Positions 5,413-34,719 of a stretch of 38,191 bases of DNA are shown here, piece after piece. The notes beneath the pieces are model-generated. The model did no database searches. It was not told the origin of the DNA and saw only the letters and a list, made by a program, of their open reading frames with translations. The position numbers and the translations under genes are program-made. The DNA comes from a virus (lineage: Duplodnaviria; Heunggongvirae; Uroviricota; Caudoviricetes): positions 1 to 38,191 of IMG/VR virus record IMGVR_UViG_2778261499_000008. One strand, written 5' to 3'. Position 1 is the stretch's first letter. The number at the start of each line of letters is the position of its first letter.

Positions 5413-6603
5413 TTAATTGCTGTTAACCGAGGTGACCAGACTTGCCAGGTATTTATCAGTAATACGCTGGCGCAGGGTCAGGTTTTCGAGAGGAGGCACC
5501 GGGGTATAGTCGTAGTCGATATACAGTTTTCCGGCCTTGAGGGTTTCCGCATCGTTGGATTCTTCGCTGAACCAGCAGGTCGCATCCACGATATAGCCGT
5601 TTGTTTTCAGCTCACGGAATTTGGCATTGATGCCGTCAACGATGTCGCGAATCAGCGTTGCGGTGATGGGCTTGTCCACCGCCCACATGTGCGCCTCAGC
5701 CATCGTGTCGGCCAGCACCTGCGCGGTGCGGGTGTAGTTTTCAAAGAGGAACAGCGGGTCATCAGAGCAGGTACGGTTACCCCAGAAGCGGAAACCGTCA
5801 CGGCGAATCAGCGTAGTGACGCCTGACTCGTTAAGCAGGTCAGCATCGGTGCCGGACTCCTGCAAATCCCAGAATACAGATGCGCTGATGCCGGTAACAC
5901 CGTTTACCCCAACGTTGGACAGCGTTTTATGCCAGCCCTGCTCCTGGTCGATTTTAGCGCGCAGACCCAGCGCACGGGCGGTGGCATGCGCGGTGGCGGT
6001 GGTACTGGTGACCGTATCCCATGCGAGGAAATCCGGCCAGATGACCATCAGCTCACGCTGGCTGAAATTCTGGCGGTAGGCTTTCACCTCGGAAATGGTC
6101 TTACAGCCCCATGCGCTGATATATCCGAAAGCGCGCAGCTTCTGACAGACTGATGCCAGTGCAACAGCCACCTCTTTGGTATCCAGCCCCGGCACACCAA
6201 GAATACGCGGTTTAACACCGGTTACCGACTCCGCCGCCAGCAGGGCTTTCAGTCCGGTGTACTGACCGTTTTCGTCAGTGGTGCCGATAATATTAGAAAC
6301 GGTCTGCGCGAGTTTCGTTTCCTCGTCATCACCGGTGCCGTCTTCCACGCGCACGACAACGGTGACCGGTTTTGACTGGTCAGCGATGGCCTGCAACGAT
6401 GCCGCCAGCGTGCCTTTTTTACCGGCCTTTGCAATTGCACTCTGCACATTGGTAATCAGCACAGGTTTATTGAGGGGGAAGGTTTCCGCATCCGCATCGC
6501 TGGCCGTGCAGACCATGCCGACAATGGCAGTGGATACGGTGGAAATGACGCGTGTGCCGTCGTTAATCTCCAGCACCTGCACGCCGTGATGATAGTCACT
6601 CAT
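5413..6603 (-). CDS. FI: Contractile tail sheath protein gpFI
   Basis: 396 aa, P2 FI length; GGAG Shine-Dalgarno 8 nt upstream of ATG; first gene of the FI-FII-E-T-U-D block. Confidence 0.9.
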   Translation of the reverse strand: MSDYHHGVQVLEINDGTRVISTVSTAIVGMVCTASDADAETFPLNKPVLITNVQSAIAKAGKKGTLAASLQAIADQSKPVTVVVRVEDGTGDDEETKLAQTVSNIIGTTDENGQYTGLKALLAAESVTGVKPRILGVPGLDTKEVAVALASVCQKLRAFGYISAWGCKTISEVKAYRQNFSQRELMVIWPDFLAWDTVTSTTATAHATARALGLRAKIDQEQGWHKTLSNVGVNGVTGISASVFWDLQESGTDADLLNESGVTTLIRRDGFRFWGNRTCSDDPLFLFENYTRTAQVLADTMAEAHMWAVDKPITATLIRDIVDGINAKFRELKTNGYIVDATCWFSEESNDAETLKAGKLYIDYDYTPVPPLENLTLRQRITDKYLASLVTSVNSN

Positions 6604-7035: not shown

Positions 7036-8235
7036 ATGCCATTTGTTATTTATGTGTTTACTATCAGTGCCTTTGCGCTCGGACTCGCGGAATTTGTCCC
7101 CATTGGGCTGACAGACGTTATGGCTCAGGGGTTGTGTGTGGGTGTGGAGCAGACCGGGGCAGCGGTTACAACCTATGCACTGGGGGCAACGTTCGCGGCA
7201 CCCGTACTGTCTGCGCTGACAGCAAGCTGGAGCCGGAAAAATGTAATGCTTACAACTGCCGTTGTGTTTACTGCCGGTAGTCTGGCGGCCGCGTTTGCAG
7301 CCACATTACCTCAGCTCCTGTTAGCGCGGTTCATTGCTGGTCTGGGACACGGCCTGTTTCTGGCTGCGGCATCCAGTACCGCAGCTCGTCTTGCTGGACC
7401 GGGTAAAGCAGGCAGAGCGGTGGCTGTGGTATTTGGTGGCTTTACTCTGGCGATGGCAATCGGCGTACCGCTGAGTACATGGTTGGGGGGGGTGGTCTCA
7501 TGGCGTCCAGTTCTCGGCGCTATTGCCGCTTTTGGCGCGTTCGGATTCCTTGGACTGTTGTTCGGTATGAAAGATCCCGTACGCAGCGTGCCCGGTGAAC
7601 ATAGTGACTCAGCAATGCAGAATATCGGCATGCTGTTTAACCGTAAGTTGCTGGCCGGCGCGCTGGTTACGGTGCTGGCGTATGCAGGCTCGTTTACGGA
7701 TTACACCTTTATCGCACCTATTCTGACGCAGGTGACAGGGGTTACCGGAGCAACGGTGAGTCTGTTTATGCTGGTTTACGGTATTACAGCTGCGGTAGGT
7801 AATATTCTTGGTGGGAAACTTACCGACAGCATGGGGGTTAATCGTGCCAATATACTCATCATTAGCGGCATTGTTGTTGTCGTGCTTGGTATGTGGCTGC
7901 TGTCATCCTCACCGGTGAGCATGGGCATTCTGGTTGCGCTGCTGGGTATGGTGACATTTGCCGCAGTGCCGGCACTGCAGGCCCGTCTGATTGGTGTCGC
8001 TGAGCAACATGCTCCTCATGCGCATGGTGTTGCTGCCGGCCTGAATATTGCGGGCTTCAACTCAGGTATAGCGCTGGGATCAGTACTGGGCAGCATTACT
8101 ATAAGCCACGCCGGTATCGTGTATACCGGTATCAGCGGTGCGATTGTTTCTCTGCTCGGCCTGCTGTTGCTGCTTGCACAAATCCGTCGCAGCCACAGTC
8201 GTAAATTTCAACAGGTTAAAATCGTAGGCCAGTAA
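7036..8235 (+). CDS. MFS-family transporter (12-TM efflux/permease type)
   Basis: 399 aa, highly hydrophobic with Gly/Ala-rich helices throughout, typical MFS topology; AGGAG RBS upstream. Not a P2 gene. Confidence 0.75.
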   Translation: MPFVIYVFTISAFALGLAEFVPIGLTDVMAQGLCVGVEQTGAAVTTYALGATFAAPVLSALTASWSRKNVMLTTAVVFTAGSLAAAFAATLPQLLLARFIAGLGHGLFLAAASSTAARLAGPGKAGRAVAVVFGGFTLAMAIGVPLSTWLGGVVSWRPVLGAIAAFGAFGFLGLLFGMKDPVRSVPGEHSDSAMQNIGMLFNRKLLAGALVTVLAYAGSFTDYTFIAPILTQVTGVTGATVSLFMLVYGITAAVGNILGGKLTDSMGVNRANILIISGIVVVVLGMWLLSSSPVSMGILVALLGMVTFAAVPALQARLIGVAEQHAPHAHGVAAGLNIAGFNSGIALGSVLGSITISHAGIVYTGISGAIVSLLGLLLLLAQIRRSHSRKFQQVKIVGQ

Positions 8236-8246
8236 AGGGAGGTTAT

Positions 8247-8939
8247 ATGCTTACCCGTGAAAATATGCTTAATGGCACATTTGTCAGGGTGCATGAAGCG
8301 CTGCTCCCGGCGAATATGCTCTGGGACGCTGAAAAAATACGCGCATCAATGAACTCTACTCTGGAGGAGCGCCCGACGGGTGCTCCTGTCTGGATATTTG
8401 CCTACGGGTCATTGATGTGGAATCCCGTGCTGGCGATTGAAGAAATGCAACGGGCCCGTCTGAAAGGATGGCAGCGCAGTTTCTGCATTCGTTTGATATC
8501 CGGACGAGCGACTCCTGATGTCCCCGGCAGGATGTTATCGCTCGACGAAGGTGGAATTACCGAAGGTATTGCGTTCAGACTGCCGGAATCGACTCTTATT
8601 AATGAGCTGGAAATTGTCTGGACGCGCGAGATGATAACCGGTCTTTACCGTCCGGTCTGGGCAGACGTTTCGCTAGGAAACGGTGAGGAAATTCAGGCGC
8701 TGGCTTTCGTATCAGACAGACTGCATCCGCATTATGAACAGGACAATCTTACAGCGACCGTAGCGTTGAGCATCGCATCTGCCCGTGGAGACATTGGCAC
8801 GAATGCAGATTATGTATGGAAACTGCAGGCCACTCTGGGTGCGTTGGGAATACGGGATGATTACGTGAGTGAACTGGCCCTTGCTCTGCATGAGGCTCCC
8901 TGTAACGATAAACTTCATCAGCGAGGCGCTTCACTATGA
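8247..8939 (+). CDS. ChaC-like gamma-glutamylcyclotransferase family protein
   Basis: 230 aa with the N-terminal FAYGSLMWNP motif characteristic of the ChaC/GGCT fold; GGGAGG RBS upstream. Confidence 0.65.
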   Translation: MLTRENMLNGTFVRVHEALLPANMLWDAEKIRASMNSTLEERPTGAPVWIFAYGSLMWNPVLAIEEMQRARLKGWQRSFCIRLISGRATPDVPGRMLSLDEGGITEGIAFRLPESTLINELEIVWTREMITGLYRPVWADVSLGNGEEIQALAFVSDRLHPHYEQDNLTATVALSIASARGDIGTNADYVWKLQATLGALGIRDDYVSELALALHEAPCNDKLHQRGASL

Positions 8940-9817
8940 GCCATCTGAGCCATCTGCGAACGTTTCTTGAGGCCTATCGCTCTGGCTCCTTTTCAAAGGC
9001 GGCAGAACTACTGGGCATCACTCAGCCCGCGGCGTCACAGCATATCCAGTCTCTTGAGACTCTGGTTGGTAAGCGTCTGTTTATCAGGCAGGCCAGAGGC
9101 GTGACGGCAACCGAAGCTGCGGATGAGCTTGCCCGCTCAGTTTCACCCTTCATTGATGGTCTGGAAGAAAAGCTGTCCTCTTTCCGGTCAGGCTCTGTAC
9201 GCGGGGGAACAATTAATCTGGCAGGACCGCCAGATTTTATTCATTCCCGGCTTGGGACAGTAATGGCTCCACTAATGAAGGAGGGGTATCGCCTACGCTT
9301 TCATACCGGCAATAAGCAACGTATTTATTCCCTTTTGCATGACGGGAGCGTCGATCTCGCTGTTACCGCATCTATGCCTGATGACCGTCTGTACGGCTAT
9401 GCACATCTACTGACTGAACGCATGCTCCTTGTTCATGCTCCCGCCATGTCAGAGATCATCGGATCAGAACCTGGTGCTGAAACGCTTGCCTCATTACCGC
9501 TGATTGCTTATGACGAAGAGTTGCCACTGATTAGAGCGCTCTGGGCCTCCATGTTTCAGAGAGCCCCTGAGATGCAGGCTACATTCACCATTCCGGATTT
9601 ACGTATTATCCGCGACTTGGTCTGTGACGGCCACGGGTGGACAGTGCTGCCGGATTATCACTGTGACAATGACCTGAAAAGTGGTCGCCTGATTTCAGTG
9701 ACACCTGCAGACCTCGCTCCGACTAATCATCTTTATCTGGTCTGGAACAAAAGGACGGCTAATAACAGCCGAACCGCCTATGTTCGGGATTACATTCTTA
9801 AAACGTTTCCGCGTTGA
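8936..9817 (+). CDS. LysR-family transcriptional regulator
   Basis: 293 aa; N-terminal HTH LRTFLEAYRSGSFSKAAELLGITQPAASQHIQSLE typical of LysR regulators, C-terminal substrate-binding region; start overlaps the ChaC-like stop (ATGA). Confidence 0.85.
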   Translation: MSHLSHLRTFLEAYRSGSFSKAAELLGITQPAASQHIQSLETLVGKRLFIRQARGVTATEAADELARSVSPFIDGLEEKLSSFRSGSVRGGTINLAGPPDFIHSRLGTVMAPLMKEGYRLRFHTGNKQRIYSLLHDGSVDLAVTASMPDDRLYGYAHLLTERMLLVHAPAMSEIIGSEPGAETLASLPLIAYDEELPLIRALWASMFQRAPEMQATFTIPDLRIIRDLVCDGHGWTVLPDYHCDNDLKSGRLISVTPADLAPTNHLYLVWNKRTANNSRTAYVRDYILKTFPR

Positions 9818-9947: not shown

Positions 9948-11240
9948 CTATGGTTTTTTATTAGAATCTTCGCCACTAAATAAATTATAATAAATTGATT
10001 TTATTAGATATCTGTCAGAATCTATATGGTCAGCACGAGTAGCATGCTCTAATGTTTCAAATGCTAGGGTTTGTGCGGCTTCAGCAAAAATTCCAGGCCA
10101 ACCCTTACTCAGCATCGACAGTCCTTTAAGTACCCTTATCTGAATTTCCCTCATACTGGCACCATCGCGCGCAACAGGTGAGAAAAAGTCTTCAAGTAGA
10201 TCGTTATTCTGAAGTGGTGCAACATGTACAGAAGGATATTTCACTTCTATTTCATCAGATTTATTCTGCGCGTAAGCGGAAAGTATACGTACACCTCTGC
10301 CAATGACATCAATGGCGGTTCCAGGATCGTTCACTGCGGGGGAAAGGGCTCGGCAGGCTATTTCGGCCATGACGCTAAGACAAAATCGGGGGTCCTGAGC
10401 AAATGAACGTACATCCGAGACAATAATCGTCTCAAGTAAATCGGTGCTGATTGATGACTCCTGGCCCTGACTCAGGTACAAAACTGGCGTGGACGGATGT
10501 ATGAAACTGCCCGGCTGCGCCACGAGGTATACATGACGGGGATCATTGGTCAGCAGCTTGCTGAGTTTCACCATATCAACATATTCAACATAGCCAATCT
10601 TTTTCGGATAAACTGCAACCGTTCCTTTCGGCTGTTCATTGTTCTCAAGCCATGGATATCCGCCGAGACAGGGATTTCTTGCTCTCGCAATAAATGTTTC
10701 GATGGCCGCCTGTTCTACTTTTGCCGTTGTCTCACCAACCCTCCCCAGAGAGGTCAAATGCTGTATCCAGCGAAGCAATGTGATGAGGATTAAGGCAATG
10801 ACAACCAGTGTTACAATGAATAAAATGACTCTCCCCCTTTCTCCATAAGCTCCCATATTGAGGGCAATAATCCCTACCAGACTGAAGAGAAAAGAACCGA
10901 TGAAGGTGGCCAGTACATTTTGTGTGGTGACGTCTTCAACAACTAAACGAGTAGCTCTGGGAGTCACATTAGTAGTGGCTGAACCGTAGGCTGTGACCAT
11001 GATGCTCAGCGAAAATGTGGTCACTGCCAGCATACTCGATGCCAGTATGTTCAGAATGTTATCGACTGCTTCCGCACCAACCTTCACGGAAACCGACTCA
11101 GGTATCATTGATTTAAAAAGAATTGATAAAAGGGCCGTTATTATTGCGACAATTGCGAATAACGTTGCCCTGAACCATAGTTTTTTAAATGTCTGCTTCA
11201 GCATCCATTTCCAGCGTGAAATCATTCTGCATTCCCTCAT
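9948..11240 (-). CDS. Integral membrane protein of unknown function (possibly DUF2254-like)
   Basis: 430 aa; N-terminal third contains several predicted TM helices, followed by a soluble domain; AT-rich codon usage. Family assignment is from memory of architecture only. True start may be an internal Met a few codons downstream. Confidence 0.4.
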   Translation of the reverse strand: MRECRMISRWKWMLKQTFKKLWFRATLFAIVAIITALLSILFKSMIPESVSVKVGAEAVDNILNILASSMLAVTTFSLSIMVTAYGSATTNVTPRATRLVVEDVTTQNVLATFIGSFLFSLVGIIALNMGAYGERGRVILFIVTLVVIALILITLLRWIQHLTSLGRVGETTAKVEQAAIETFIARARNPCLGGYPWLENNEQPKGTVAVYPKKIGYVEYVDMVKLSKLLTNDPRHVYLVAQPGSFIHPSTPVLYLSQGQESSISTDLLETIIVSDVRSFAQDPRFCLSVMAEIACRALSPAVNDPGTAIDVIGRGVRILSAYAQNKSDEIEVKYPSVHVAPLQNNDLLEDFFSPVARDGASMREIQIRVLKGLSMLSKGWPGIFAEAAQTLAFETLEHATRADHIDSDRYLIKSIYYNLFSGEDSNKKP

Positions 11241-11249
11241 ATTGCAGCC

Positions 11250-11281
11250 GGGATAAATAAATGCCGCCTCTGTGGCGGCAT
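11250..11281 (-). terminator. Rho-independent terminator downstream of the BCCT transporter gene
   Basis: Hairpin ATGCCGCC-N5-GGCGGCAT followed on the minus strand by TTATTTATCC, immediately 3' of the BCCT stop. Confidence 0.6.
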
Positions 11282-11288
11282 GTTGCTG

Positions 11289-13292
11289 TTAACGAACCAG
11301 ATGCAGGAAGTGCAGGTGTTTTTCGTACTGGTCCAGTATGTCATTAATCAGCTGTTCCTGATTCCAGCCCATTACATCATAATTTTGGCCGCCCTCTTTG
11401 AGATAGACTTCAGCGCGATAATATCGATGTTGTTCACTCTGCTGCTCATCATTATCCAGCGCAGCGAGCGCGAAGGTCGGTGAGTTATACCCGCGAAGTC
11501 TCACTTCATATATATAATTCAGCTCGTTGCCCAAATCGACTTCAAGGCGAATACGATCCTCGGCGGCGTCACTGATGTGGCTTATCGTTCCCTGCTTGTT
11601 AAGTTCCTCCTGAACCAGCGTCATGGCGGGTTGGATAATGTCGTCCATAAAACGTTTCACAAGAGAGCGCTTCGGCAAATACGCGATATTGCGTAACCTT
11701 CTCTGCCAGGGAATTGGGTTACGTGCAGCCGTAGGAGCAATAGTCGCCATGCTAAGGCTTTCACGCTTGGTCAAATCCCGACGCAGGGCTTTTAACAGTC
11801 CGTATATGGATATTAATAAGATAACTGAGAAGGGCAATGCACTCGCTATCGTTACGGTTTGCAACGCACTCAGCCCCCCTGCGATCAGCAGGGCAATAGC
11901 AACAACGCCCATGAGCGATGCCCAGAAAATTCGCTGCCAGACGGGCGTGTTTGCCACCCCACCTGATGCCAGAGTATCCACAACCATTGCCCCCGAATCA
12001 GCAGACGTTACAAAGAAGACGATGACCATCGCCATTGCAATGAATGACAGCACGGAAGAGAACGGGAAATGCTCCAGGAAATTAAACAGGGCAAGCGCAA
12101 CATCCTGCTGAACGGTATTGGCGAGGTCAGTGGCGCCCTGGTTCATGATGAGATAGATGGCGCTGTTTCCAAACACCGTCATCCACATGAGCGTAAAGCC
12201 GGCGGGAACAAACAACACGCCAGTCACGAACTCACGAATTGTCCTGCCGCGGGAAACGCGTGCAATGAACATACCTACAAACGGCGACCATGAAAGCCAC
12301 CATCCCCAGTATAATAATGTCCAGCCCCCCAGCCAGTTGCTCGACTTGGGTTCATACGCGTAAAGGTTGAACGTTTTACTCACCAGTTCCGACAGATAAC
12401 CACCCGTATTTTCCACAAATGACTTCAGCAGAAGCACAGTGGGACCCAGGCACAAGACCAGCGCCAGGAGCAACACCGCCAGGCCCAGATTAAGCTCAGA
12501 CAGGATGCGTATTCCCTTGTCCAGGCCGGACACCACCGAAATCGTCGCTAACCCCGTGATGACCACGATCAAAATGACCTGTACCGTTTCATTGATGGGC
12601 ACGCCGAAAAGATGGTTCAAACCGGCATTCACCTGCAATACACCGTAACCCAGCGATGTTGCAACGCCAAAGACAGTGCCTATCACGGCGAAGATATCAA
12701 CCGCGTGGCCTATAGGCCCGTAAATGCGATCGCCGATAATGGGATAGAGCGCAGAACGCAGCGTTAAAGGCAGACCGTGACGGTAACTGAAAAAGGCCAG
12801 AATCAGCGCCACGATGGCATAAATTGCCCATGCGTGCAGACCCCAGTGGAAGAACGTCAGGCGCATGGCTTCCTTCGCTGCCGCAACGGTCTCTGGAGTG
12901 CCGACAGGTGGCGAAAGATAATGCATCACAGGTTCGGCAACGCCAAAGAACATCAGGCCGATCCCCATCCCTGCCGAAAAAAGCATCGCGAACCAGGAGT
13001 GGTAGCTGAAATCAGGCTGCGCATGGTCTGGGCCCAGCTTTATATCACCGTAACGTGAGAGTCCAAGGAACGTGACGCTCAGTAAAATCAGGGCCACAGC
13101 AAGTATGTAGAACCAGCTGGCATTCGTGAAGATTTGTTGCTGAAGTAGTTTAAAATTTTTGTCGGCGACATCCGGGAATACGGCGGCAAAGGCGACAAGA
13201 AGGAAAATTAGCAAAGCAGATGTAAAGAATACCGCTTTGTTAATCTGGCTTGTAGACTTCTTTGGGGTTGTATCATTTTCACTCATAATCAT
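11289..13292 (-). CDS. BCCT-family transporter, BetT-like (choline/betaine/carnitine type) with long cytoplasmic C-terminal tail
   Basis: 667 aa; contains the BCCT signature region ...WTLLYWGWWLSWSPFVGMFIARVSRGRTIREF...; overall length and C-terminal extension resemble BetT. Confidence 0.85.
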   Translation of the reverse strand: MIMSENDTTPKKSTSQINKAVFFTSALLIFLLVAFAAVFPDVADKNFKLLQQQIFTNASWFYILAVALILLSVTFLGLSRYGDIKLGPDHAQPDFSYHSWFAMLFSAGMGIGLMFFGVAEPVMHYLSPPVGTPETVAAAKEAMRLTFFHWGLHAWAIYAIVALILAFFSYRHGLPLTLRSALYPIIGDRIYGPIGHAVDIFAVIGTVFGVATSLGYGVLQVNAGLNHLFGVPINETVQVILIVVITGLATISVVSGLDKGIRILSELNLGLAVLLLALVLCLGPTVLLLKSFVENTGGYLSELVSKTFNLYAYEPKSSNWLGGWTLLYWGWWLSWSPFVGMFIARVSRGRTIREFVTGVLFVPAGFTLMWMTVFGNSAIYLIMNQGATDLANTVQQDVALALFNFLEHFPFSSVLSFIAMAMVIVFFVTSADSGAMVVDTLASGGVANTPVWQRIFWASLMGVVAIALLIAGGLSALQTVTIASALPFSVILLISIYGLLKALRRDLTKRESLSMATIAPTAARNPIPWQRRLRNIAYLPKRSLVKRFMDDIIQPAMTLVQEELNKQGTISHISDAAEDRIRLEVDLGNELNYIYEVRLRGYNSPTFALAALDNDEQQSEQHRYYRAEVYLKEGGQNYDVMGWNQEQLINDILDQYEKHLHFLHLVR

Positions 13293-13619: not shown

Positions 13620-14147
13620 TTATTGCGGCATTTCCGGCCATTCAGGATTTGCAGGATCCACACGACTGACCACAACGCTGTAGCGTTCCCAAGCCTCCAG
13701 CCGTGTGCGCTCCTCCTCTGTTGCCATGTTCAGCCTGACAGCACGCTCTAGCGGCAAAATCACGGATTCAGCATCTGCAAGAAGTCTGGCTTTCCGGTTT
13801 TCTGCCTGCAGTTGCAATTCCTCTGCCGTATAAATTCGTTTGATCACTGTGCCATCCTTAAACATCCAGTTCCCTGAAATGTCCGCCCGTCGGTTAGCAG
13901 TAATATCCGCCACTTCAACAACACTTAATCCATCCGGTCTGATAGCTGTCACATCCTTTTCCACATAGCGGATGATATTATCTTTGTCGTACGCTATTTT
14001 TATCGTGTCATCAGCAAAATACTTTTGTTCTTCGTACCAGTTCTTACCATCTTCTGAAAAAAACCAGACAACATCAAAGTTCTTTGTCAATTGATATTGT
14101 TCAACCGTTTTTGGATTACCCGCCGTAATATTTTTTAAATGCTGCAT
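13620..14147 (-). CDS. G: Tail fibre assembly chaperone gpG
   Basis: 175 aa, P2 gpG length, immediately downstream of the tail fibre gene H. Confidence 0.85.
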
Positions 14148-18777: not shown

Positions 18778-19563
18778 ATGGTCAGCTATAATGTGACTAA
18801 TGTGTGGGGGCTAATCGTTTTTTTCCTTTGTAGCTTTGCAGTATTAGCATTTTTTAGCTTTGGTAAAAGTAACCTTATGAGGCTTATTGCACATTATTTC
18901 AATTTTGGATATTCAGACAAAAAATTAAAAAGACTTGACCGCGAGTGGCGCGACATTCAACTATTTAAAATAATTAACGGAATCAATGTATCAGGCATTG
19001 AAAATGTGAGAATGATACAGCAGGGACTGATTGATGGAAAACTAAAAACATCGTATTTTTTCCTTACTCGCATCTGGGGTGACATAACAAAACCACCACA
19101 CATAATTAAAACAATAATTGTAATTCTGGCCAGTATTATTTATATTCTCTTCGCATGTTATATACACAACAAACAATCCGCTATAGTAAGAGATGCCATA
19201 GGCATACCATATAAAAATATGATGTACTATGTTTATAGTGACAAAGTTCTTTTATCCTTCAAAAATAAAGCAGTTGAATTTAATAAAACTTATAGCCTTG
19301 CCGATTGCAAGAGACTGCAAAACGTATTTATAAAAGACACACTTCCTGAAATCGCCTGCAATAAGCTCTTACAGCTAAACGAGGAGGACTCCGAATGGTT
19401 AAGCCAGGAGATTAAAGATAATAACAGTCACAAAAAAGCATTATTAATACTATCCCTCGTCTATTTCACTTCAGGTCTGGTTATATTCCTGTCATATACA
19501 AAATTCTTTTACGCCAATAAGAAGGTTTTAGAATACAAAGCATCAAATAAAAATCACTCATAA
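18778..19563 (+). CDS. Hypothetical membrane protein (moron), three predicted TM segments, unknown function
   Basis: 261 aa; very AT-rich gene on the opposite strand to the flanking late genes V and S; AAGGAG RBS 7 nt upstream of ATG; hydrophobic stretches near residues 9-29, 110-130 and 221-241; I recognise no family. Confidence 0.6.
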   Translation: MVSYNVTNVWGLIVFFLCSFAVLAFFSFGKSNLMRLIAHYFNFGYSDKKLKRLDREWRDIQLFKIINGINVSGIENVRMIQQGLIDGKLKTSYFFLTRIWGDITKPPHIIKTIIVILASIIYILFACYIHNKQSAIVRDAIGIPYKNMMYYVYSDKVLLSFKNKAVEFNKTYSLADCKRLQNVFIKDTLPEIACNKLLQLNEEDSEWLSQEIKDNNSHKKALLILSLVYFTSGLVIFLSYTKFFYANKKVLEYKASNKNHS

Positions 19564-26008: not shown

Positions 26009-27781
26009 ATGACCATCACCACAGACACCACTCTTTTACACGACCCGCGTCGTCAGGCGGCGCTGCTGTACTGGCAGGGGTTTTCCGTGCCGCAGATTGC
26101 CGCCATGTTGCAGATGAAACGCCCGACGGTGCAGAGCTGGAAACAGCGCGACGGCTGGGACAGCGTTGCCCCCATCAGCCGTGTCGAAATGAGTCTGGAA
26201 GCGCGGCTGACCCAGCTCATCATCAAACCGCAGAAAACCGGCGGTGACTTCAAGGAAATTGACCTGCTGGGACGCCAGATTGAACGACTGGCACGGGTAA
26301 ACCGCTACAGTCAGACCGGCAACGAGGCAGACCTTAATCCGAACGTCGCTAACCGCAACAAAGGCGGGCGTCGCAAACCGAAAAAGAATTTTTTCAGTGA
26401 CGAGGCCATCGAAAAGCTGGAGCAGATTTTCTTTGAGCAGTCTTTCGACTATCAGTTGCACTGGTATCGCGCCGGGCTTGAGCACCGCATCCGCGATATC
26501 CTGAAATCCCGCCAGATTGGCGCGACGTTTTATTTTTCCCGCGAGGCGCTGCTGCGCGCCCTGAAAACCGGCCATAACCAGATTTTTCTGTCGGCCAGTA
26601 AAACGCAGGCGTATGTGTTCCGCGAATACATCATCGCCTTTGCCCGTCTGGTTGACGTTGACCTGACCGGTGACCCGATTGTCCTGGGCAATAACGGCGC
26701 AAAACTGATTTTTCTCGGCACCAACTCCAACACCGCGCAGAGCCATAACGGCGACCTGTACGTCGACGAGATTTTCTGGATCCCGAATTTTCAGGTACTG
26801 CGTAAGGTGGCATCAGGTATGGCCTCACAGAGTCACCTGCGCTCGACCTATTTCTCCACCCCGTCCACGCTGGCGCACGACGCCTACCCGTTCTGGTCGG
26901 GTGAACTGTTTAACCGGGGACGCGCCAGCGCCGCCGAACGCGTGGAAATCGACGTCAGTCATAACGCCCTTGCCGGTGGGCTTCTCTGTGCGGACGGCCA
27001 GTGGCGGCAGATTGTCACCATTGAGGACGCCCTGAAAGGCGGCTGCACGCTGTTCGACATTGAGCAACTCAAACGTGAAAACAGCGCCGACGATTTTAAA
27101 AACCTGTTCATGTGTGAATTTGTTGACGACAAGGCGTCGGTGTTCCCGTTCGAGGAGCTGCAACGCTGCATGGTCGACACGCTGGAAGAATGGGAAGACT
27201 ATGCTCCGTTTGCCGCCAATCCGTTCGGCTCACGTCCGGTATGGATTGGTTACGACCCGTCACACCGTGGCGACAGCGCCGGATGCGTGGTGCTGGCACC
27301 GCCGGTGGTGGCCGGTGGCAAATTCAGAATACTTGAGCGTCACCAGTGGAAAGGCATGGACTTTGCCACCCAGGCGGAATCCATCCGCAAACTCACCGAA
27401 AAATATAACGTCGAATACATCGGTATTGATGCCACCGGCCTCGGTGTCGGCGTGTTCCAGCTCGTGCGCTCGTTCTATCCCGCCGCGCGCGATATCCGCT
27501 ACACGCCGGAAATGAAAACTGCAATGGTGCTCAAGGCAAAAGACGTTATCCGCCGTGGCTGTCTGGAATATGACGTCAGCGCCACCGACATCACCAGCTC
27601 GTTCATGGCTATCCGCAAGACCATGACCAGCAGCGGACGCAGCGCCACCTATGAGGCCAGCCGCAGCGAGGAAGCCAGCCACGCCGACCTCGCCTGGGCG
27701 ACCATGCACGCCCTGTTAAATGAGCCACTCACCGCCGGTATCAGCACTCCGCTGACATCCACCATTCTGGAGTTTTACTGA
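26009..27781 (+). CDS. P: Terminase ATPase (large) subunit gpP
   Basis: 590-aa product starting MTITTDTTLLHDPRRQAALLYWQGFSVPQIAAML...; GAGG RBS 6 nt upstream of this ATG; ORF-track start at 25979 is an upstream TTG. Confidence 0.9.
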   Translation: MTITTDTTLLHDPRRQAALLYWQGFSVPQIAAMLQMKRPTVQSWKQRDGWDSVAPISRVEMSLEARLTQLIIKPQKTGGDFKEIDLLGRQIERLARVNRYSQTGNEADLNPNVANRNKGGRRKPKKNFFSDEAIEKLEQIFFEQSFDYQLHWYRAGLEHRIRDILKSRQIGATFYFSREALLRALKTGHNQIFLSASKTQAYVFREYIIAFARLVDVDLTGDPIVLGNNGAKLIFLGTNSNTAQSHNGDLYVDEIFWIPNFQVLRKVASGMASQSHLRSTYFSTPSTLAHDAYPFWSGELFNRGRASAAERVEIDVSHNALAGGLLCADGQWRQIVTIEDALKGGCTLFDIEQLKRENSADDFKNLFMCEFVDDKASVFPFEELQRCMVDTLEEWEDYAPFAANPFGSRPVWIGYDPSHRGDSAGCVVLAPPVVAGGKFRILERHQWKGMDFATQAESIRKLTEKYNVEYIGIDATGLGVGVFQLVRSFYPAARDIRYTPEMKTAMVLKAKDVIRRGCLEYDVSATDITSSFMAIRKTMTSSGRSATYEASRSEEASHADLAWATMHALLNEPLTAGISTPLTSTILEFY

Positions 27782-28815
27782 TGAGTAAGAAAAAAGGGAA
27801 AACACCGCGACCTGCGGCAAAAACAATCACCGCCAGCGCCCCGAAAATGGAGGCATTCACCTTTGGTGAGCCGGTGCCGGTACTCGACCGCCGTGACATT
27901 CTGGATTACGTCGAGTGCATCAGTAACGGCAGATGGTATGAGCCGCCGGTCAGCTTTACCGGTCTGGCGAAAAGCCTGCGTGCTGCCGTGCATCACAGCT
28001 CGCCGATTTACGTCAAACGCAATATTCTGGCCTCGACATTTATCCCGCATCCGTGGCTTTCCCAGCAGGATTTCAGCCGCTTTGTGCTGGATTTTCTGGT
28101 GTTCGGTAATGCGTTTCTGGAAAAGCGTTACAGCACCACCGGTAAGGTCATCAGACTGGAAACCTCACCGGCAAAATATACCCGCCGTGGCGTGGAGGAG
28201 GATGTTTACTGGTGGGTGCCGTCCTTCAACGAGCCGACAGCCTTCGCGCCCGGCTCCGTGTTTCACCTGCTGGAGCCGGATATTAATCAGGAGCTGTACG
28301 GCCTGCCGGAATATCTCAGCGCCCTTAACTCTGCCTGGCTGAATGAGTCGGCCACGCTGTTCCGCCGCAAGTATTACGAAAACGGCGCACATGCCGGATA
28401 CATCATGTACGTCACCGATGCCGTGCAGGACCGCAACGATATCGAAATGCTTCGCGAAAACATGGTGAAGTCGAAAGGCCGCAATAACTTTAAAAATCTG
28501 TTTCTCTATGCCCCACAGGGGAAAGCCGACGGCATTAAAATTATCCCGCTCAGTGAAGTGGCAACGAAGGACGATTTTTTTAATATCAAAAAAGCCAGCG
28601 CCGCTGACCTGCTGGACGCGCACCGTATCCCCTTTCAGTTGATGGGCGGCAAGCCGGAGAACGTCGGGTCACTGGGAGATATTGAGAAAGTGGCAAAGGT
28701 CTTTGTCCGCAATGAGCTTATCCCGTTACAGGACAGAATTCGGGAAATAAACGGCTGGCTCGGTCAGGAGGTCATCCGCTTTAAAAACTACTCACTGGAC
28801 ACTGACAACGGTTGA
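27781..28815 (+). CDS. Q: Portal (capsid vertex) protein gpQ
   Basis: 344 aa, P2 gpQ length; start overlaps the P stop. Confidence 0.9.
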   Translation: MSKKKGKTPRPAAKTITASAPKMEAFTFGEPVPVLDRRDILDYVECISNGRWYEPPVSFTGLAKSLRAAVHHSSPIYVKRNILASTFIPHPWLSQQDFSRFVLDFLVFGNAFLEKRYSTTGKVIRLETSPAKYTRRGVEEDVYWWVPSFNEPTAFAPGSVFHLLEPDINQELYGLPEYLSALNSAWLNESATLFRRKYYENGAHAGYIMYVTDAVQDRNDIEMLRENMVKSKGRNNFKNLFLYAPQGKADGIKIIPLSEVATKDDFFNIKKASAADLLDAHRIPFQLMGGKPENVGSLGDIEKVAKVFVRNELIPLQDRIREINGWLGQEVIRFKNYSLDTDNG

Positions 28816-28820
28816 ACATC

Positions 28821-28842
28821 GCCGCCTGCGGGCGGCTTTTTT
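28821..28842 (+). terminator. Rho-independent terminator after Q
   Basis: GCCGCC-TGCG-GGCGGC hairpin followed by TTTTTT, 6 nt after the Q stop codon. Confidence 0.8.
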
Positions 28843-28984
28843 ACACCCCGTCATCACGCCCTCACACGCTCACCACCGCACAAAACACCCCGCAGACACA
28901 CCAACGCCTCAACGGGCAGACTAAGCGCCATTACGACGCGCTGAGACGCTGAAAAAATAAAATCAGCACCACCGCCAGCGCGCA

Positions 28985-29003
28985 GTGCTTTCCCCGCCTC
29001 GCC
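28985..29003. other. cos: cos-like site (candidate 19-nt cohesive end)
   Basis: GTGCTTTCCCCGCCTCGCC is the reverse complement of the P2 cohesive-end sequence GGCGAGGCGGGGAAAGCAC as I recall it; lies about 170 bp beyond Q, as in P2. Confidence 0.7.
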
Positions 29004-29246
29004 CGCCCGCTTCATGGGGCGGTTTTAATGCGGTTGCACAGCCATGTCAAAGCCATGTCAACACTAGCAGTATGTAAAAAGAGCAGATATAAGAAACAAA
29101 TGCAGTTTCATGCAAAAAGCGACACACATCATGTCATGAAACAAAGCCGCTAATGAACACTTGCTTTGGTTATCTTAAGGTTTTATCTTCAGCCTAACCT
29201 ATTGATTGCATGAAACTAAAATGAACTCTCAGCAAGGAACGACTAT

Positions 29247-31205
29247 ATGTCAGATTTCGAAATTAAAATTGATTTGAATGTGCTAAATCACCTAGGGATG
29301 AGTCTCTATTCCAATACTCCCGCGGTACTAACTGAGATTATATCAAATGCATGGGATGCAGATGCTCAAAATGTAGAAATTACACTTGATGTTGAGAAAG
29401 GAGAGGTCATCATTAAAGATGATGGTCATGGCATGTCTAAAGATGACATTATTAATAAGTTCCTAAAAGTCGGTTATGCTCGCAGGGAACATGGAAGAGC
29501 CAAAAGCGATCATCTAAAACGTCAAGTTATGGGCAGAAAAGGTATTGGTAAGCTTGCCATGTTTTCACTTGCCAATAAAATCCAAGTTTATTCGTACAAA
29601 AAGGGGGAACAGCCTCAGGCCTTTGAGGTAGATGTCAAAGATTTACAGCAAAGTATCAAAGAATCAAAAAACTATATTGCTGACTCCCTTGAAATACCCG
29701 AAAATCTTGCTTACGGCACTACAATTAAATTATTTGAACTAAAAAAAGCCATTGATAGGACTCAAACTTACCTCAGAAAGCGAATAGCTCGTCGATTTAG
29801 CATTATTGGCCCCAACCATAACTTTACAGTTAAAATTAATGGGACCGATATTACACCGGCAGATAGAGATTTCCTTTCAGATCTCGAGTTCATTTGGGAA
29901 TTTGGCGAATCCGACCCTGAAAGGATAAAATCCTGCACAAACATCACACAAAAAAACATATTACCAAATACTATTACCTTTGAAGGAAAAGATGTAAAAG
30001 TTAGTGGGTACATTGGCAGTGTAGTTAAGCCATCACAGTTAAAGAAAGACCCTGAAATATCTAACAACAGCATTACTGTAATCTCTCACGGACGTGTTTT
30101 TGAGGAGGACATATTATTAGAATTTGGAAGTGCTAAAGTATTCACCAATTATCTGGTCGGTGAAATAGTCGCCGATTTTCTAGATGATAACGAAAAGCCT
30201 GATATGGCAACATCTTCTCGTCAAAAACTACAACAGAATGATCCAAGATACCCTGTACTTAAAGGTTTTCTGGAAAGAACGCTACAACTAATCGATAAAG
30301 ATTGGGATAAATGGAGACGCGAAAAAGGAGTAAATGAAGTTAAAAGCAATACTCCAATAGTAAGTGAATGGCTGAATTCTCTCAAAAAACATGAGAGAGA
30401 AAGTGCCGAAAAGTTAATTGGACGAGTAAACACATTCCGTTTTTCTGGTAATGAGGAAGAACAAAAAGCAGCAAGAAAAACCGTATTAAAAAATACGGTA
30501 TTAGCCTTTGAAAGACTTAGAATTCAAGACAACCTTGATGCATTAGATAAAATAAGCAACCTTCAATCAGAAAATTTTAAAGATGTATTTGCATCTGTCA
30601 ATGACATTGAAGCAAGCATGTTTTATGAAATTACTTCGCAACGCCTTAAAGTAATTGAAAAATTCCAAAAAATAACTGATGAAAATCAGCTTGAAAGAGC
30701 TGTACAAATGTATTTATATGATCATTTATGGTTATTGGATCCTTCATGGGAAAGAGTCACAGGCACATCTGTTATGGAGCAAACATTGACCAAGGAACTA
30801 AAACAGATAAACCCTGATGCTGCTAGCGGTGCTCGTATTGATATCGCTTTCAAAACCGTTTCTGGCAAGCATGTAATTATTGAGATGAAACGACCTAAAG
30901 TGCACCCAGATATAATGAACCTAGTCGCACAAGGTAATAAATATGTACAGGCAACGACACAATGGTTCTCCAATAACCCTAAAAATTGCCCAGGTGGAAA
31001 TATACCGCATATAGAAGTAATATTCCTGGTTGGCTCTGGATATTTACAAGAGAACCAACACTCTATAAATATGCAATTACTTTCTATCAATGGAAAAATA
31101 TTGACATATAATGACCTAATCGTGCAATCAAAACAAGCCTATGCTGAATATCAAGACAAAAAGAATGATGCAGCTAGAATTATGAAAATAGTTGAGGGAA
31201 TCTAA
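29247..31205 (+). CDS. GHKL-family (MutL/MORC/Hsp90-type) ATPase fused to a C-terminal putative PD-(D/E)xK nuclease-like domain; candidate restriction/defence protein
   Basis: 652 aa. N-terminus has the Bergerat-fold motifs in order: N-box TEIISNAWDADA, G1 box IKDDGHGM, G2 box GRKGIGKLAMF. C-terminus has ARIDIAFKTVSGKHVIIEMKRPK (D ... E-x-K). AAGGAA RBS upstream. AT-rich relative to the phage backbone. Occupies the P2 old/tin position. Confidence 0.7.
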   Translation: MSDFEIKIDLNVLNHLGMSLYSNTPAVLTEIISNAWDADAQNVEITLDVEKGEVIIKDDGHGMSKDDIINKFLKVGYARREHGRAKSDHLKRQVMGRKGIGKLAMFSLANKIQVYSYKKGEQPQAFEVDVKDLQQSIKESKNYIADSLEIPENLAYGTTIKLFELKKAIDRTQTYLRKRIARRFSIIGPNHNFTVKINGTDITPADRDFLSDLEFIWEFGESDPERIKSCTNITQKNILPNTITFEGKDVKVSGYIGSVVKPSQLKKDPEISNNSITVISHGRVFEEDILLEFGSAKVFTNYLVGEIVADFLDDNEKPDMATSSRQKLQQNDPRYPVLKGFLERTLQLIDKDWDKWRREKGVNEVKSNTPIVSEWLNSLKKHERESAEKLIGRVNTFRFSGNEEEQKAARKTVLKNTVLAFERLRIQDNLDALDKISNLQSENFKDVFASVNDIEASMFYEITSQRLKVIEKFQKITDENQLERAVQMYLYDHLWLLDPSWERVTGTSVMEQTLTKELKQINPDAASGARIDIAFKTVSGKHVIIEMKRPKVHPDIMNLVAQGNKYVQATTQWFSNNPKNCPGGNIPHIEVIFLVGSGYLQENQHSINMQLLSINGKILTYNDLIVQSKQAYAEYQDKKNDAARIMKIVEGI

Positions 31206-31209
31206 TTAT

Positions 31210-31233
31210 ACCCCCCTGTTTTTTGACAGGGGG
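31210..31233. terminator. GC-rich hairpin between the convergent ATPase and methyltransferase genes (possible bidirectional terminator)
   Basis: CCCCCTGT-tttttg-ACAGGGGG, 8-bp stem, located in the 40-bp gap between the two stop codons. Confidence 0.5.
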
Positions 31234-31245
31234 ATGACATAAGTT

Positions 31246-32295
31246 TTAAATATTCATTTCTGACAAATGTTTTAAAATAGTTTCACCTACGACCTCACCA
31301 AGCCTAACAGGAACAGCATTACCTATTAAACGCGCAACTGTTCTCATTTCAATTTTTACATCATCAGGCCAAAACTCATACTTTTCTGGGAATGACTGTA
31401 ATAGCGCAGCCTCTCTTAAACTTAATGCTCTATTTTGGACAGGGTGCCCAAAGCGTCCATTCCCATATCCAATACATTGAGTTGTAATTGTCGGTCCAAG
31501 TTTATCCCAACACATTCTCCCATATACAGCAGTATATGTAGAACCACTTTCTTTTGTATGACATTTTGCTCTTAGCTCTTCTGGCCAATCACGCCATGTT
31601 CCACCAGGTTTTGATGCCATTATTCTTTTTATATTAATATCAGATAATGATGCAGAGCGATGTAGTTTATCTCCAGCGTGAACAGCACCGGCACTAATTT
31701 CAGGAAGATTACCGATTATATCTCGCACCGTTTTATAATCATTCTTCTCATGAGTTGGTGGAATTATTTCTATTTCTCCATATTTTGATGCCAATAACAC
31801 TAATCTTGAACGACTTTGTGCCATTCCATAGTCTGGACAAAACACCACCCCATACCAAACAAAATAGCCATCATTTTTAAGAGACTTAATGAAGTCCTTA
31901 AAAACCTTATGATTCACCACTCGGGGAACGTTTTCCATTGTAATAATATCTGGCTTTGCAAATTTAATTTGCTTAGCAAAGCTATAAAGCAAAGACCATC
32001 TTTTATCTTTTGAACGTACTACCCCTAATTTAGCACTATTGGTATAGCTTGAAAAAGGTTGGCATGGGGCACAACCAGCCAAAACTCGAACCTTCGCTCC
32101 TTCGAAATATTTAACTAATTCGCCGTCCTCAATGTCTGTAACACTTTTCTGGACAAAGAGTGATTTATTATTTGTCTCATAGGCAAATCGACAGGCTGCA
32201 TCTATATCATAACCTGCAACTACATTAAGCCCCGACTTCTGAAGACCGTGAGTCAAGCCACCCGCGCCACAGAATAAATCAACAACCTTAATCAA
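31246..32295 (-). CDS. DNA (cytosine-5)-methyltransferase, Dcm-type
   Basis: Motif I DLFCGAGG, motif IV PCQPFS, motif VI ENV, motif VIII QSRSR, motif X GNAVP. Start placed at a TTG preceded by a strong AGGAGG RBS (product begins (M)IKVVDLFCGAGG, 349 aa); the ORF track extends in frame to an ATG at 32397, which I consider less likely. Confidence 0.85.
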   Translation of the reverse strand: MIKVVDLFCGAGGLTHGLQKSGLNVVAGYDIDAACRFAYETNNKSLFVQKSVTDIEDGELVKYFEGAKVRVLAGCAPCQPFSSYTNSAKLGVVRSKDKRWSLLYSFAKQIKFAKPDIITMENVPRVVNHKVFKDFIKSLKNDGYFVWYGVVFCPDYGMAQSRSRLVLLASKYGEIEIIPPTHEKNDYKTVRDIIGNLPEISAGAVHAGDKLHRSASLSDINIKRIMASKPGGTWRDWPEELRAKCHTKESGSTYTAVYGRMCWDKLGPTITTQCIGYGNGRFGHPVQNRALSLREAALLQSFPEKYEFWPDDVKIEMRTVARLIGNAVPVRLGEVVGETILKHLSEMNI

Positions 32296-32406
32296 GATAA
32301 ACCTCCTTCTAATGCTGTGGGGATTGTAGCATTGTTCTTTCTCATCATCGATGTTTACTTGATGCTTGATTTGTGAATACAAAATCAAGCATGTCAATCA
32401 TTATTG
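32296..32406 (-). promoter_or_regulatory. Methyltransferase promoter region with an 11-bp perfect inverted repeat (candidate operator)
   Basis: ATGCTTGATTT-N9-AAATCAAGCAT at about 32362-32392, with a TTGACA -35-like hexamer overlapping one arm on the minus strand, and AGGAGG RBS downstream. Confidence 0.5.
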
Positions 32407-34719
32407 TTAGTTTGTTTCAAATCCCGCCCAACCATCAGAAATCGGATATGAAAACGTTTTCCCATCATAATTTACGGTCGCGCCACGCGCCAGCGCCTCA
32501 AGCTCCCATCGCTGCGGCCTGATACCGTTCTGAGCAAGGTCAACGCGGATACGGGTAATTTGCATTCTTTCCGACCGGGTCAGTCTGGCCGATGGTGCAA
32601 TTTCATGTGGTTTTAACGGGCTTCCGTTTCTTTGCTGACGACTTGGCGTTCTCCGACCGTGTTTTAATGCACCTCTGAGCGCCCTCACGACCTCCGGGTC
32701 ACTCCATTCGATAACACCGTCATCAACCAGATTAAGCACTGCTGCGGCGTGCTCAGAAGGTGTGGGAGCCGGTAACGAAGTATCACCACCGGTGAGTTTT
32801 CCACAGTTATTGACAGGACTCCGAGGCGCGGCGATGCCGCTTTTTAAAGTCAAAGGCTGAACGACCGGAACTTTCGGCACAATGCGCCAGTCCGTCGTTC
32901 TGGTGATATGAATATGACGCGCGCCGAGATGCGGCGCGTAAATGCCGACCACTCTCTCGACCTCTTCCTCGTACTCGTTAACGTCATCCGACGGGCTACG
33001 GGCGACCCTGACAGTCTGACAATCGCGCGGGACATTTGCCCCACCCTGCGCGCTGATATACAGCGCAAAATCGCCACTGTCTGCGGCAGCGCGTGCAGCC
33101 TCGACGCGTTCGTCAAACTCATCAGCAATGCTGACGCCGCGAGGCAATTTGCGTAGTTCACGGTAAGCCCCCATTGTCGGCAGGCCAACCGTTTTAAATT
33201 GCGGAATGCGCCACGTTGACGCCCATGCGGTAACAGCCGCGGCAGTGTCTTTCAGCGGCCTGCCGGTATCGTTATCGAGCTGACCATCCAGTGCATAGCC
33301 GTCGATGTTTTTTGAAATGTATTTCGCGATATATCCCGCAGCACCGCCCCGGTTAAGGTGCTTTGCCTGAAAACGGTTTCGCGCGGCTCCTCTTTCGTCA
33401 CCATCCTCTTTGAGCGCATAGCGACGCATGATTTCGATAATCTGGTTACGCTGGCGTGGATTACAAAAAAGCATCATATGCCAGTGCGGCGTTCCGTCGT
33501 GGTGTGGCTCGACGACACGCAAACCGTAGACCTGTAAATCATTATCCTTGAATGCCGTGCGCATCAGGCTCCAGATGCGGCAGAGATAACGCTGCGCATC
33601 CTTTGGATTAAATGCCTCATCGTTCCAGCCGTGATTTAGCTGGACGGTTTTACTTTCGCCTTTTCCAACCTGACGTGTCGGGTGATACTTTGACGGCGCG
33701 GTGAGCGTGATAAACATCCCCACATCACCCTCTGCTGCGGCGTAACGCTCAATACCAGCAATGGTGTTCATCAGCTCCATCCGGCGAATTTCAGGATTAG
33801 AAATACTGCCCATCACCTTACTGATAAGGTCGATGCGCTCGCCGGTTTCCCTGTTTTCGAGATCACACGATTTAAGAAATTCCAGATTTGCCTGGCGGCG
33901 CGCACGCACATCACGAATGGCGTGTTTACTGGCATAAGGAGAACGGTCTTTATTGACCTCCCCGACAGCTATCAGTAACGCTTCATGCCAGCGCATACGC
34001 TGGCCTTTAAGCTGATGAGTCCACCACTCATCGTTAAACAGACGGGCAATGGCAGAATATGCCTGCCTCGTGGTCATCTGTCCTTTACGGTATTTTTTCC
34101 AGTAGAGAGGGGAAATATTGAAAGCTCGTGCAGCGCCAGCAACATGACCATACAGGTGAGCCTGAGCCTCATCCGTAAACAGTGATTCTTTTTCGCCATG
34201 CGCATCCACCCAGGCATCGCTGAGTTCCTCATACATCATGAAAAGCTGCGATGAGATACGGGCGGCAAACTTTTTCAGCTCCTTGTCATTCATTCCCGGC
34301 AGGCGCGCATAGTGGTCACGCTCTGCCAGAAACAGCAACGACGTGTCGGTGTTCATTTCATGGCGCTGATTCACACGCTCAATGCGCGGCCATAAACGAC
34401 GCTGAAAAGTGGATGTGAGGAAATAAAACCCGTGCACCGGGCTTTTATTGCGCCGGATGTAGTCATAGCGTGAAGTAAACAGCGAGCGCAAAAAGTAAGG
34501 CAGGCGGTTAATCGTGGATAAAACACCTTGCACCTGACGCATCTCGTCACGTGTAAGGGGTCTTTCGCGCCCGACGGCCTCGCGTGGCGCGTTCCATGCA
34601 TAAGCACCGGTCGTCTTACCGGTGCCTGCGGCAAATGCTGACGGAGGGACAAAACGCCCGGAGGCTTTAACGGCCATATGAGCCAAAAGCCTCTGAACAA
34701 CGCTTGCTGAGTTGCTCAA
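32407..34719 (-). CDS. A: Replication initiation protein gpA (rolling-circle initiator/nickase)
   Basis: 770-aa ORF recognisably P2 gpA (…VVEPHHDGTPHWHMMLF… …GYIAKYISKNIDGY…). True start may be a few codons downstream of the ORF-track start (P2 gpA is about 761 aa). Confidence 0.88.
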   Translation of the reverse strand: MSNSASVVQRLLAHMAVKASGRFVPPSAFAAGTGKTTGAYAWNAPREAVGRERPLTRDEMRQVQGVLSTINRLPYFLRSLFTSRYDYIRRNKSPVHGFYFLTSTFQRRLWPRIERVNQRHEMNTDTSLLFLAERDHYARLPGMNDKELKKFAARISSQLFMMYEELSDAWVDAHGEKESLFTDEAQAHLYGHVAGAARAFNISPLYWKKYRKGQMTTRQAYSAIARLFNDEWWTHQLKGQRMRWHEALLIAVGEVNKDRSPYASKHAIRDVRARRQANLEFLKSCDLENRETGERIDLISKVMGSISNPEIRRMELMNTIAGIERYAAAEGDVGMFITLTAPSKYHPTRQVGKGESKTVQLNHGWNDEAFNPKDAQRYLCRIWSLMRTAFKDNDLQVYGLRVVEPHHDGTPHWHMMLFCNPRQRNQIIEIMRRYALKEDGDERGAARNRFQAKHLNRGGAAGYIAKYISKNIDGYALDGQLDNDTGRPLKDTAAAVTAWASTWRIPQFKTVGLPTMGAYRELRKLPRGVSIADEFDERVEAARAAADSGDFALYISAQGGANVPRDCQTVRVARSPSDDVNEYEEEVERVVGIYAPHLGARHIHITRTTDWRIVPKVPVVQPLTLKSGIAAPRSPVNNCGKLTGGDTSLPAPTPSEHAAAVLNLVDDGVIEWSDPEVVRALRGALKHGRRTPSRQQRNGSPLKPHEIAPSARLTRSERMQITRIRVDLAQNGIRPQRWELEALARGATVNYDGKTFSYPISDGWAGFETN

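Follow-up and report, generated by a model that had tools for sequence, protein, structure and literature searches.

A probable Type II restriction-modification cassette of the BbrUII/HgiDII family at the gpA-cos-gpQ locus of a P2-like Escherichia coli prophage

What kind of system is encoded by two convergent, AT-rich genes that lie between replication gene A and the cos site of a P2-like Escherichia coli prophage? The window analyzed here spans positions 1 to 38,191 (38,191 nt) of IMG/VR record IMGVR_UViG_2778261499_000008 and contains a complete P2-like prophage. One gene of the pair (29247..31205, plus strand) encodes a protein of 652 amino acids (aa) that joins an N-terminal GHKL ATPase to a C-terminal nuclease, and the other (31246..32295, minus strand) encodes a C5-cytosine DNA methyltransferase (MTase) of 349 aa. 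A preliminary description, made from the sequence alone, presented the pair as a candidate uncharacterised ATP-dependent restriction-modification (R-M) module, and knew of no characterised single-polypeptide enzyme of this architecture. Our analysis indicates that the architecture and the R-M function had been recognized correctly, whereas the novelty had not: the pair is very probably a two-gene Type II R-M cassette of the BbrUII/HgiDII family, horizontally acquired as low-GC cargo at the gpA-cos-gpQ locus. Both the family and the hotspot are known, and RefSeq and GenBank already label the pair.

The identity of the 652-aa protein as a restriction endonuclease (REase) is carried by a curated family model. 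The NCBIfam equivalog NF050001, "BbrUII/HgiDII family restriction enzyme," scores 752.7 bits on it (cutoff 550; E = 3.8e-226), and the alignment, in which aa 4-651 correspond to positions 1-658 of the 659 in the model, amounts to a full-length match. The PADLOC model REase_II (PDLC03419) matches the same protein (E = 1.6e-91). Newer RefSeq records give the identical protein, WP_001279022.1, the name "BbrUII/HgiDII family restriction enzyme," older ones call it an "ATP-binding protein," and in each record the neighbor is a "DNA cytosine methyltransferase." The assignment combines a family model with database labels, R.HgiDII, R.BbrUII, and M.HgiDII being compared by name. Because the pair is a named system in databases, the claim of novelty fails. 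The architecture had likewise been documented, since the GHKL domain of R.HgiDII and the paraMORC3 proteins were both published in 2008 and mutants of the similarly built VcSduA have been tested, as discussed below. The family comprises 576 clusters at 50% identity with E < 1e-30, and the best 150 of these 576 are mostly ~650 aa long.

The 652-aa protein consists of a GHKL ATPase (aa ~1-170) and an S5-like transducer (aa ~170-330), which together form a module at 29247..30236 on the plus strand (aa 1-330), followed by a helical linker (aa ~334-478) and a PD-(D/E)xK nuclease domain (aa ~479-652; 30681..31202, plus strand). This two-part build, with an N-terminal GHKL domain and a distinct C-terminal domain, is the one published for R.HgiDII. 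The motifs that first drew attention to the protein are located at aa 29-40 (TEIISNAWDADA), aa 56-63 (IKDDGHGM), aa 96-106 (GRKGIGKLAMF), and aa 530-551 (RIDIAFKTVSGKHVIIEMKRPK). Four Bergerat motifs (I, E30/N34/D37; II, D58/G60/G62; III, G96-G101; IV, G157/T158) are invariant across 38 homologues with 44-82% identity, and the same holds for E483, D532, E546, K548, Q562, and Y566, which constitute the RecB-type E / D / ExK / QxxxY set. Since the motif residues remain invariant down to 44% identity, the motifs are not a product of chance. E483, D532, E546, and K548 are likely the catalytic residues, and with Q562...Y566 they form a candidate motif set of the RecB/NucS/Shedu-like kind.

An AlphaFold2 model of the protein was built from the 38-sequence alignment (pLDDT, predicted local distance difference test, 78.6), and structure comparison assigns the C-terminal domain to a NucS/SduA-like PD-(D/E)xK fold, in agreement with the nuclease predicted earlier and with the invariant E483/D532/E546/K548. 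The link to NucS and SduA is visible only through structure comparison and sub-threshold matches to Pfam SduA_C. This model scores 17.7 bits on the C-terminus of the window protein against a cutoff of 27 (E = 0.0042), and it matches 18 of 22 homologous C-terminal domains at E < 1, with a best value of 5.1e-7. A sequence profile of the C-terminal domain searched against all PDB sequences gave no meaningful match, the best being an EVH1 domain (E = 0.21). On the basis of the modelled fold, the HgiDII family's C-terminal domain can confidently be placed in the NucS/Shedu-like PD-(D/E)xK group.

The partner gene encodes WP_000598783.1, annotated as a C5-cytosine DNA methyltransferase by Pfam, PADLOC, TIGR00675, and RefSeq. 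It displays the motifs FCGAGG, PCQ, ENV, QSRSR, and GNAVP on the minus strand, convergent with the REase gene, and is matched by Pfam DNA_methylase (E = 1.3e-55), by PADLOC MTase_II (E = 3e-88), and by TIGR00675 dcm (129.7 bits; cutoff 100.65). The description of a convergent, Dcm-type 5-methylcytosine (m5C) MTase therefore stands, with a corrected start: translation begins at the TTG at 32295, which is preceded by GGAGG 6 nt upstream, giving 349 aa. The longer reading of 383 aa (31246..32397), which starts at an upstream in-frame TTG, is set aside in view of this GGAGG, of the RefSeq coding sequence coordinates, and of an identical 349-aa database protein (P0121). The 349-aa protein is best read as the cognate modification enzyme of the 652-aa REase.

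The association of the two genes is conserved. In seven of the eight contexts with a visible neighbor, this window being one of the seven, the REase has a C5 MTase as its immediate neighbor (a V. cholerae copy at a contig end, where the neighbor is not visible, was left out). These contexts include a Pantoea P2-like prophage in which the cassette occupies the same P2 hotspot (82% identity), V. parahaemolyticus prophages with the cassette between cI and int (70%), Gallibacterium P2-like prophages (51%), a non-phage region of an Alcanivorax chromosome (45%), and two metagenomic relatives with co-directional genes (33-35%). Linked pairs accordingly occur in both convergent and co-directional layouts and across distant taxa. 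That the linkage is kept despite changes of host, orientation, and genomic context fits the expectation for a cognate R-M pair, and this conserved pairing, together with NF050001 and the PADLOC REase_II and MTase_II models, upholds the R-M function originally proposed.

The position of the cassette varies among related phages. The E. coli and Pantoea cassettes use the gpA-gpQ locus, whereas in Vibrio and Gallibacterium P2/K139-like prophages (L002, L004, L005, L006, and L007) the cassette is found at a different variable locus, which in the Vibrio loci is the interval from cI to int, next to the cI repressor, and in the Gallibacterium loci the stretch from the cI region to tail gene D. The cassette moves from one hotspot to another among related phages.

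In the window itself, a 19-nt cohesive-end sequence of the P2 type (GGCGAGGCGGGGAAAGCAC) is present on the minus strand at 28985..29003 and forms one edge of the variable locus; it is an exact match to the P2 cos sequence, for which the chance expectation is 0 matches. Because cos is found here and gene A ends at 32407, the pair is located between cos and gene A. The GC content is 0.36-0.39 across ~29000-32500, compared with 0.54-0.58 in the flanks, and the two genes make up an island of 36-38% GC. The gpA-gpQ locus holds old and tin in P2 and is described as an anti-phage hotspot whose gene arrangements in E. coli number 1,650 (PMC9122126). The preliminary description had placed the pair at the old/tin position, had noted that both genes are AT-rich, and had reported a GC hairpin between them and an open reading frame (ORF) with Bergerat motifs at 29247..31205; each of these observations was reproduced here.

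The same module occurs elsewhere. APEC (avian pathogenic E. coli) O2-211 is identical (100%) across 28800-32500 but was rejected as the window's exact source, since its coordinates disagree with the window in the FI-G region. The full module is present in 30 of 5,426 complete E. coli genomes. The GenBank P2-like phage PhiR44_1 (PV340563.1), which was propagated on E. coli C, carries the same pair with 99.8% identity at the amino-acid level, under the labels "ParaMORC3" and "Dcm protein." A literature search on "PhiR44" found no paper, and the main text of a 2026 preprint on P2/P4 defence repertoires makes no mention of R-M, Shedu, MORC, or GHKL.

Taken together, we hypothesize that the 349-aa MTase would methylate the recognition site of the cassette in host and prophage DNA, while the 652-aa endonuclease would cut incoming DNA that does not carry the methyl mark, so that the lysogen and its prophage would be shielded from other phages and plasmids. 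Nucleotide-driven dimerisation of the GHKL heads may, by analogy with MutL/MORC and VcSduA, help to position or license two nuclease domains; this step is suggested because the ATP-binding motifs are intact and invariant. The recognition site is probably GTCGAC, if the family assignment is taken as a guide, this being the site of HgiDII and of M.HgiDII. BbrII is an iso- or neoschizomer of SalI. Avoidance of GTCGAC by the prophage was considered as a clue to specificity and gives no information, since the window contains 4 sites and 7.9 +/- 2.6 are expected, which is not a significant depletion.

Several points weigh against this interpretation. The GTCGAC site is drawn from family names, and GTCGAC is not significantly depleted in the window. 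The base methylated by M.BbrUII is disputed, with N6-adenine given in one report (PMC5829577) and 5-methylcytosine, with homology to M.HgiDII, in another (PMC5867850). No experiment was found on this E. coli protein or on its methyltransferase. In the one informative context that departs from the pairing, the short 5.2-kb contig of P0260 (38% identity) carries no MTase, and P0260 adjoins an Mrr_cat protein. Further, VcSduA, a Shedu type I-D protein from the V. cholerae WASA lineage that shares this architecture and was studied by mutagenesis in 2025, defends its host without any methyltransferase being mentioned (PMC12137116), and therefore the pairing is not obligatory for the architecture.

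These points raise the question of whether the protein might act in a different way. If it resembled VcSduA in function, it would be a sensor nuclease of the Shedu type I-D/paraMORC3 kind, in which the GHKL domain holds the nuclease off until infection and methylation plays no part, and the MTase would serve another purpose, e.g., protection of packaged DNA from restriction by other hosts. We consider this improbable. VcSduA, which acts alone, does share the architecture, and substitution of either its ATPase (E27A) or its nuclease (K557A) abolishes defence (PMC12137116); the PhiR44_1 protein is labelled "ParaMORC3"; and stand-alone paraMORC3 genes were noted by Iyer et al. (PMC2292703). However, an MTase accompanies the REase in all but one of the eight informative contexts, in distant taxa and in both layouts, the curated family carries the names of two listed Type II restriction enzymes, and no PADLOC Shedu model matches. 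Among the features of Shedu membership, the NucS/SduA-like PD-(D/E)xK fold is present, whereas the SduA_C score stays at 17.7 against the Pfam gathering threshold of 27 bits and the protein is not a single-gene system.

It is less probable still, and in our estimate very unlikely, that the nuclease attacks foreign modified DNA in the manner of Type IV or other non-classical systems, with an unrelated or anti-restriction MTase at its side. One relative does adjoin an Mrr_cat gene, but no modified-base reader domain (SRA, EVE, DUF262) was detected in Pfam, PADLOC, and NCBIfam scans, and the family is annotated as Type II. Moreover, a nuclease dependent on m5C next to an m5C MTase would attack its own host. 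As for a sensor histidine kinase-type ATPase, which would make the protein a signalling component rather than a nuclease, weak NCBIfam histidine kinase matches (E = 0.012-0.055) and a generic HATPase_c match point in that direction. This is hardly credible, since the Pfam scan shows no HisKA domain and the C-terminus is a conserved PD-(D/E)xK nuclease, and the fold search, which the preliminary description had proposed as a check on both termini, excludes a kinase.

A Type II R-M cassette thus remains our preferred explanation, and within it the ATPase deserves separate consideration. Although HgiDII is counted among the orthodox Type II enzymes, conservation of the ATPase motifs is strict, and the ATPase mutant of VcSduA is dead. 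One possibility, which we put forward tentatively and regard as rather doubtful, is that the "orthodox" Type II enzymes of the HgiDII family are ATP-gated in vivo, with MORC-like closure of the GHKL dimer licensing the paired PD-(D/E)xK domains, and that the family is the MTase-linked sister to VcSduA and other stand-alone nucleases of Shedu type I-D. If so, one scaffold would switch between methylation-based self/non-self discrimination and infection sensing.

Non-coding elements in the island were also examined. Between the convergent genes, a G+C-rich hairpin (31212..31233), with core arms CCCCCTGT (31212-31219) and ACAGGGGG (31226-31233), has a folding energy of -17.7 kcal/mol on one strand and -17.6 kcal/mol on the other (z = -3.7 and -3.8). 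This hairpin probably stops transcription in both directions, putatively for both genes. The consensus scan listed a terminator-like site on the minus strand at 31216-31195 and did not list the 31212-31233 stem. About 30 nt upstream of the MTase start, an extended -10-like element (TGCTACAAT; 32323..32331, minus strand) is conserved in the Pantoea cassette (L003) and is a candidate for the cassette's own MTase promoter, although it is not among the sites returned by the consensus promoter scan; in total, the promoter/terminator scan of 28700-32600 returned 9 promoter-like sites, with 10.9 expected from shuffled sequence. Immediately after the stop codon of gene A, on the upstream side of the MTase, there is a perfect 11-bp inverted repeat, ATGCTTGATTT N9 AAATCAAGCAT (32362..32392; -13 kcal/mol, z = -3.1), that overlaps a TTGACA hexamer. 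A role for this repeat as a conserved operator was considered and rejected, since none of the four other cassettes examined (Pantoea, Vibrio, Gallibacterium, and Alcanivorax) has it upstream of the MTase. The repeat probably belongs to this phage, as a junction or terminator feature, and not to the cassette.

On the other side of the island, the AT-rich leader that separates cos from the start of the REase gene (29020-29246) contains two copies of a short direct repeat, CCATGTCAA (~29043-29068), as well as a pair of small inverted repeats (at 29105-29142 and at 29139-29171), and no consensus promoter was found there in the scan. No ORF of at least 50 aa that could encode a controller (C) protein or Vsr fits inside the island, and ORFs upstream of the REase are not conserved between other hosts.

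The rest of the prophage follows the P2 plan. Tail genes D, U, and T (301-4405) are followed in order by the sheath and tube, baseplate, lysis, head, terminase, and portal genes and by gene A, cox, the repressor, and the integrase. The terminase gene occupies 26009..27781 (RefSeq start; the ORF list begins at 25979), portal gene Q occupies 27781..28815, and after gene A come cox, the repressor, and then the integrase, at 38191. A second P2 variable locus, the Z/fun position (6604-13619), is located between sheath gene FI (5413..6603) and a tail-fibre assembly gene (13620..14147) and harbors ~7 kb of metabolic-looking cargo. This cargo comprises genes for an MFS (major facilitator superfamily) transporter (7036..8235), a ChaC-like protein (8247..8939), and a LysR regulator (8936..9817) on the plus strand, and for a DUF2254 membrane protein (9948..11240) and a BCCT transporter (11289..13292) on the minus strand. 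A PADLOC scan of the proteins of this cargo gave 0 matches, and a prophage of E. coli S10 has a shorter DUF2254 plus BCCT version at the same spot (90.5% identity). The P2 genome is ~33.6 kb. With the Z/fun cargo, the prophage exceeds 38 kb, well above P2, which prompts one to ask if packaging is still possible. In addition, a 261-aa ORF of ~40% GC (18778-19563, plus strand) has baseplate gene V on one side and virion-morphogenesis gene S on the other, both encoded on the opposite strand. It has no Pfam or PADLOC match and is a "hypothetical protein" in RefSeq, and it may represent a third cargo or defence slot.

For annotation, the value of these results is small, given that the Type II R-M family and the prophage defence hotspot are both recognized and that public labels exist. 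What is added is the fold and the candidate catalytic residues of the HgiDII family's C-terminal domain, a corrected MTase start, and an explicit link between HgiDII, paraMORC3, and GHKL-containing Shedu proteins. The family thereby connects classical restriction enzymes with the GHKL-Shedu/paraMORC3 defence nucleases, and PhiR44_1, as an inducible, isolated P2-like phage with the pair, would offer a convenient system for studying the role of a MORC-type ATPase in a restriction enzyme.

Among known systems, old and tin of P2 share with the cassette the position, from gene A to cos/gene Q, and the general role of phage-exclusion cargo. Old is an ATPase plus Toprim nuclease. Old and Tin are, however, single exclusion proteins, whereas the cargo in the window is an R-M pair. 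The proteins appear to be unrelated to Old and Tin: neither protein of the pair matched an Old- or Tin-named family in general Pfam, NCBIfam, and PADLOC scans, in which the presence of such models was unchecked and which included no direct comparison with the Old and Tin sequences. Compared with MutL and MORC, the window protein lacks both the C-terminal endonuclease or dimerisation domain of MutL and the CW or coiled-coil chromatin modules, its GHKL-S5 unit being fused instead to a PD-(D/E)xK nuclease.

The resemblance to Shedu is closer. Shedu proteins with GHKL N-terminal domains are catalogued as type 1D, and VcSduA, like the window protein, is a single chain of ~650 aa in which a GHKL ATPase at the N-terminus and a DUF4263-type PD-(D/E)xK nuclease at the C-terminus flank a clamp-like middle region. 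Judging by its published description, its catalytic E27 and K557 are close in position to E30 and K548 of the window protein. Defence by VcSduA was found to be direct and non-abortive, without host killing (PMC12137116), and WP_001279022 was not found among the VcSduA homologues in the searched part of Supplementary Table 7 of that study. The two differ in that VcSduA works alone, whereas the window protein is tightly linked to a C5 MTase and falls, outside the PADLOC Shedu models, in a family named for restriction enzymes.

ParaMORC3 was defined in 2008 by Iyer, Abhiman and Aravind as proteins with GHKL, S5, and a C-terminal RecB-like nuclease bearing E-D-ExK motifs; they are proteobacterial and DNA-methylase-associated, and ATP-driven DNA looping was proposed for them (PMC2292703). 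The window REase has each of these parts, including a GHKL domain with intact motifs and a RecB-like restriction endonuclease fold with E-D-ExK. ParaMORC3 was, in contrast, defined computationally and includes many stand-alone genes, and the likeness is to its published description. A distant paraMORC3-like protein also occurs in Yersinia pestis phage P37 (MT239398.1 / NC_070907.1), where a "hypothetical protein" near the genome end (247-2109) aligns to 96% of the REase with 25.7% identity (E = 1e-42).

The closest counterparts are the characterised enzymes that give the family its name. R.HgiDII, listed as a subtype P Type II enzyme, was described in 2008 as having an N-terminal GHKL domain, with its C-terminal domain then unassigned to any known fold (PMC2441816). 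M.HgiDII is an experimentally characterised m5C MTase for GTCGAC (Dusterhoft and Kroger, 1991, as cited in PMC5867850), and the systems of Bifidobacterium breve UCC2003 are characterised Type II R-M systems in REBASE. In contrast to these systems, which reside on Herpetosiphon or Bifidobacterium chromosomes, the window pair is carried by a P2-like E. coli prophage. Nevertheless, the window REase fits the HgiDII/BbrUII family model along its full length and above the curated cutoff, it begins with a GHKL domain as R.HgiDII does, and its partner is a C5 MTase of ~350 aa like M.HgiDII, while the C-terminal domain left unassigned in 2008 for R.HgiDII can, in the window protein, be placed in the NucS/Shedu-like PD-(D/E)xK fold.

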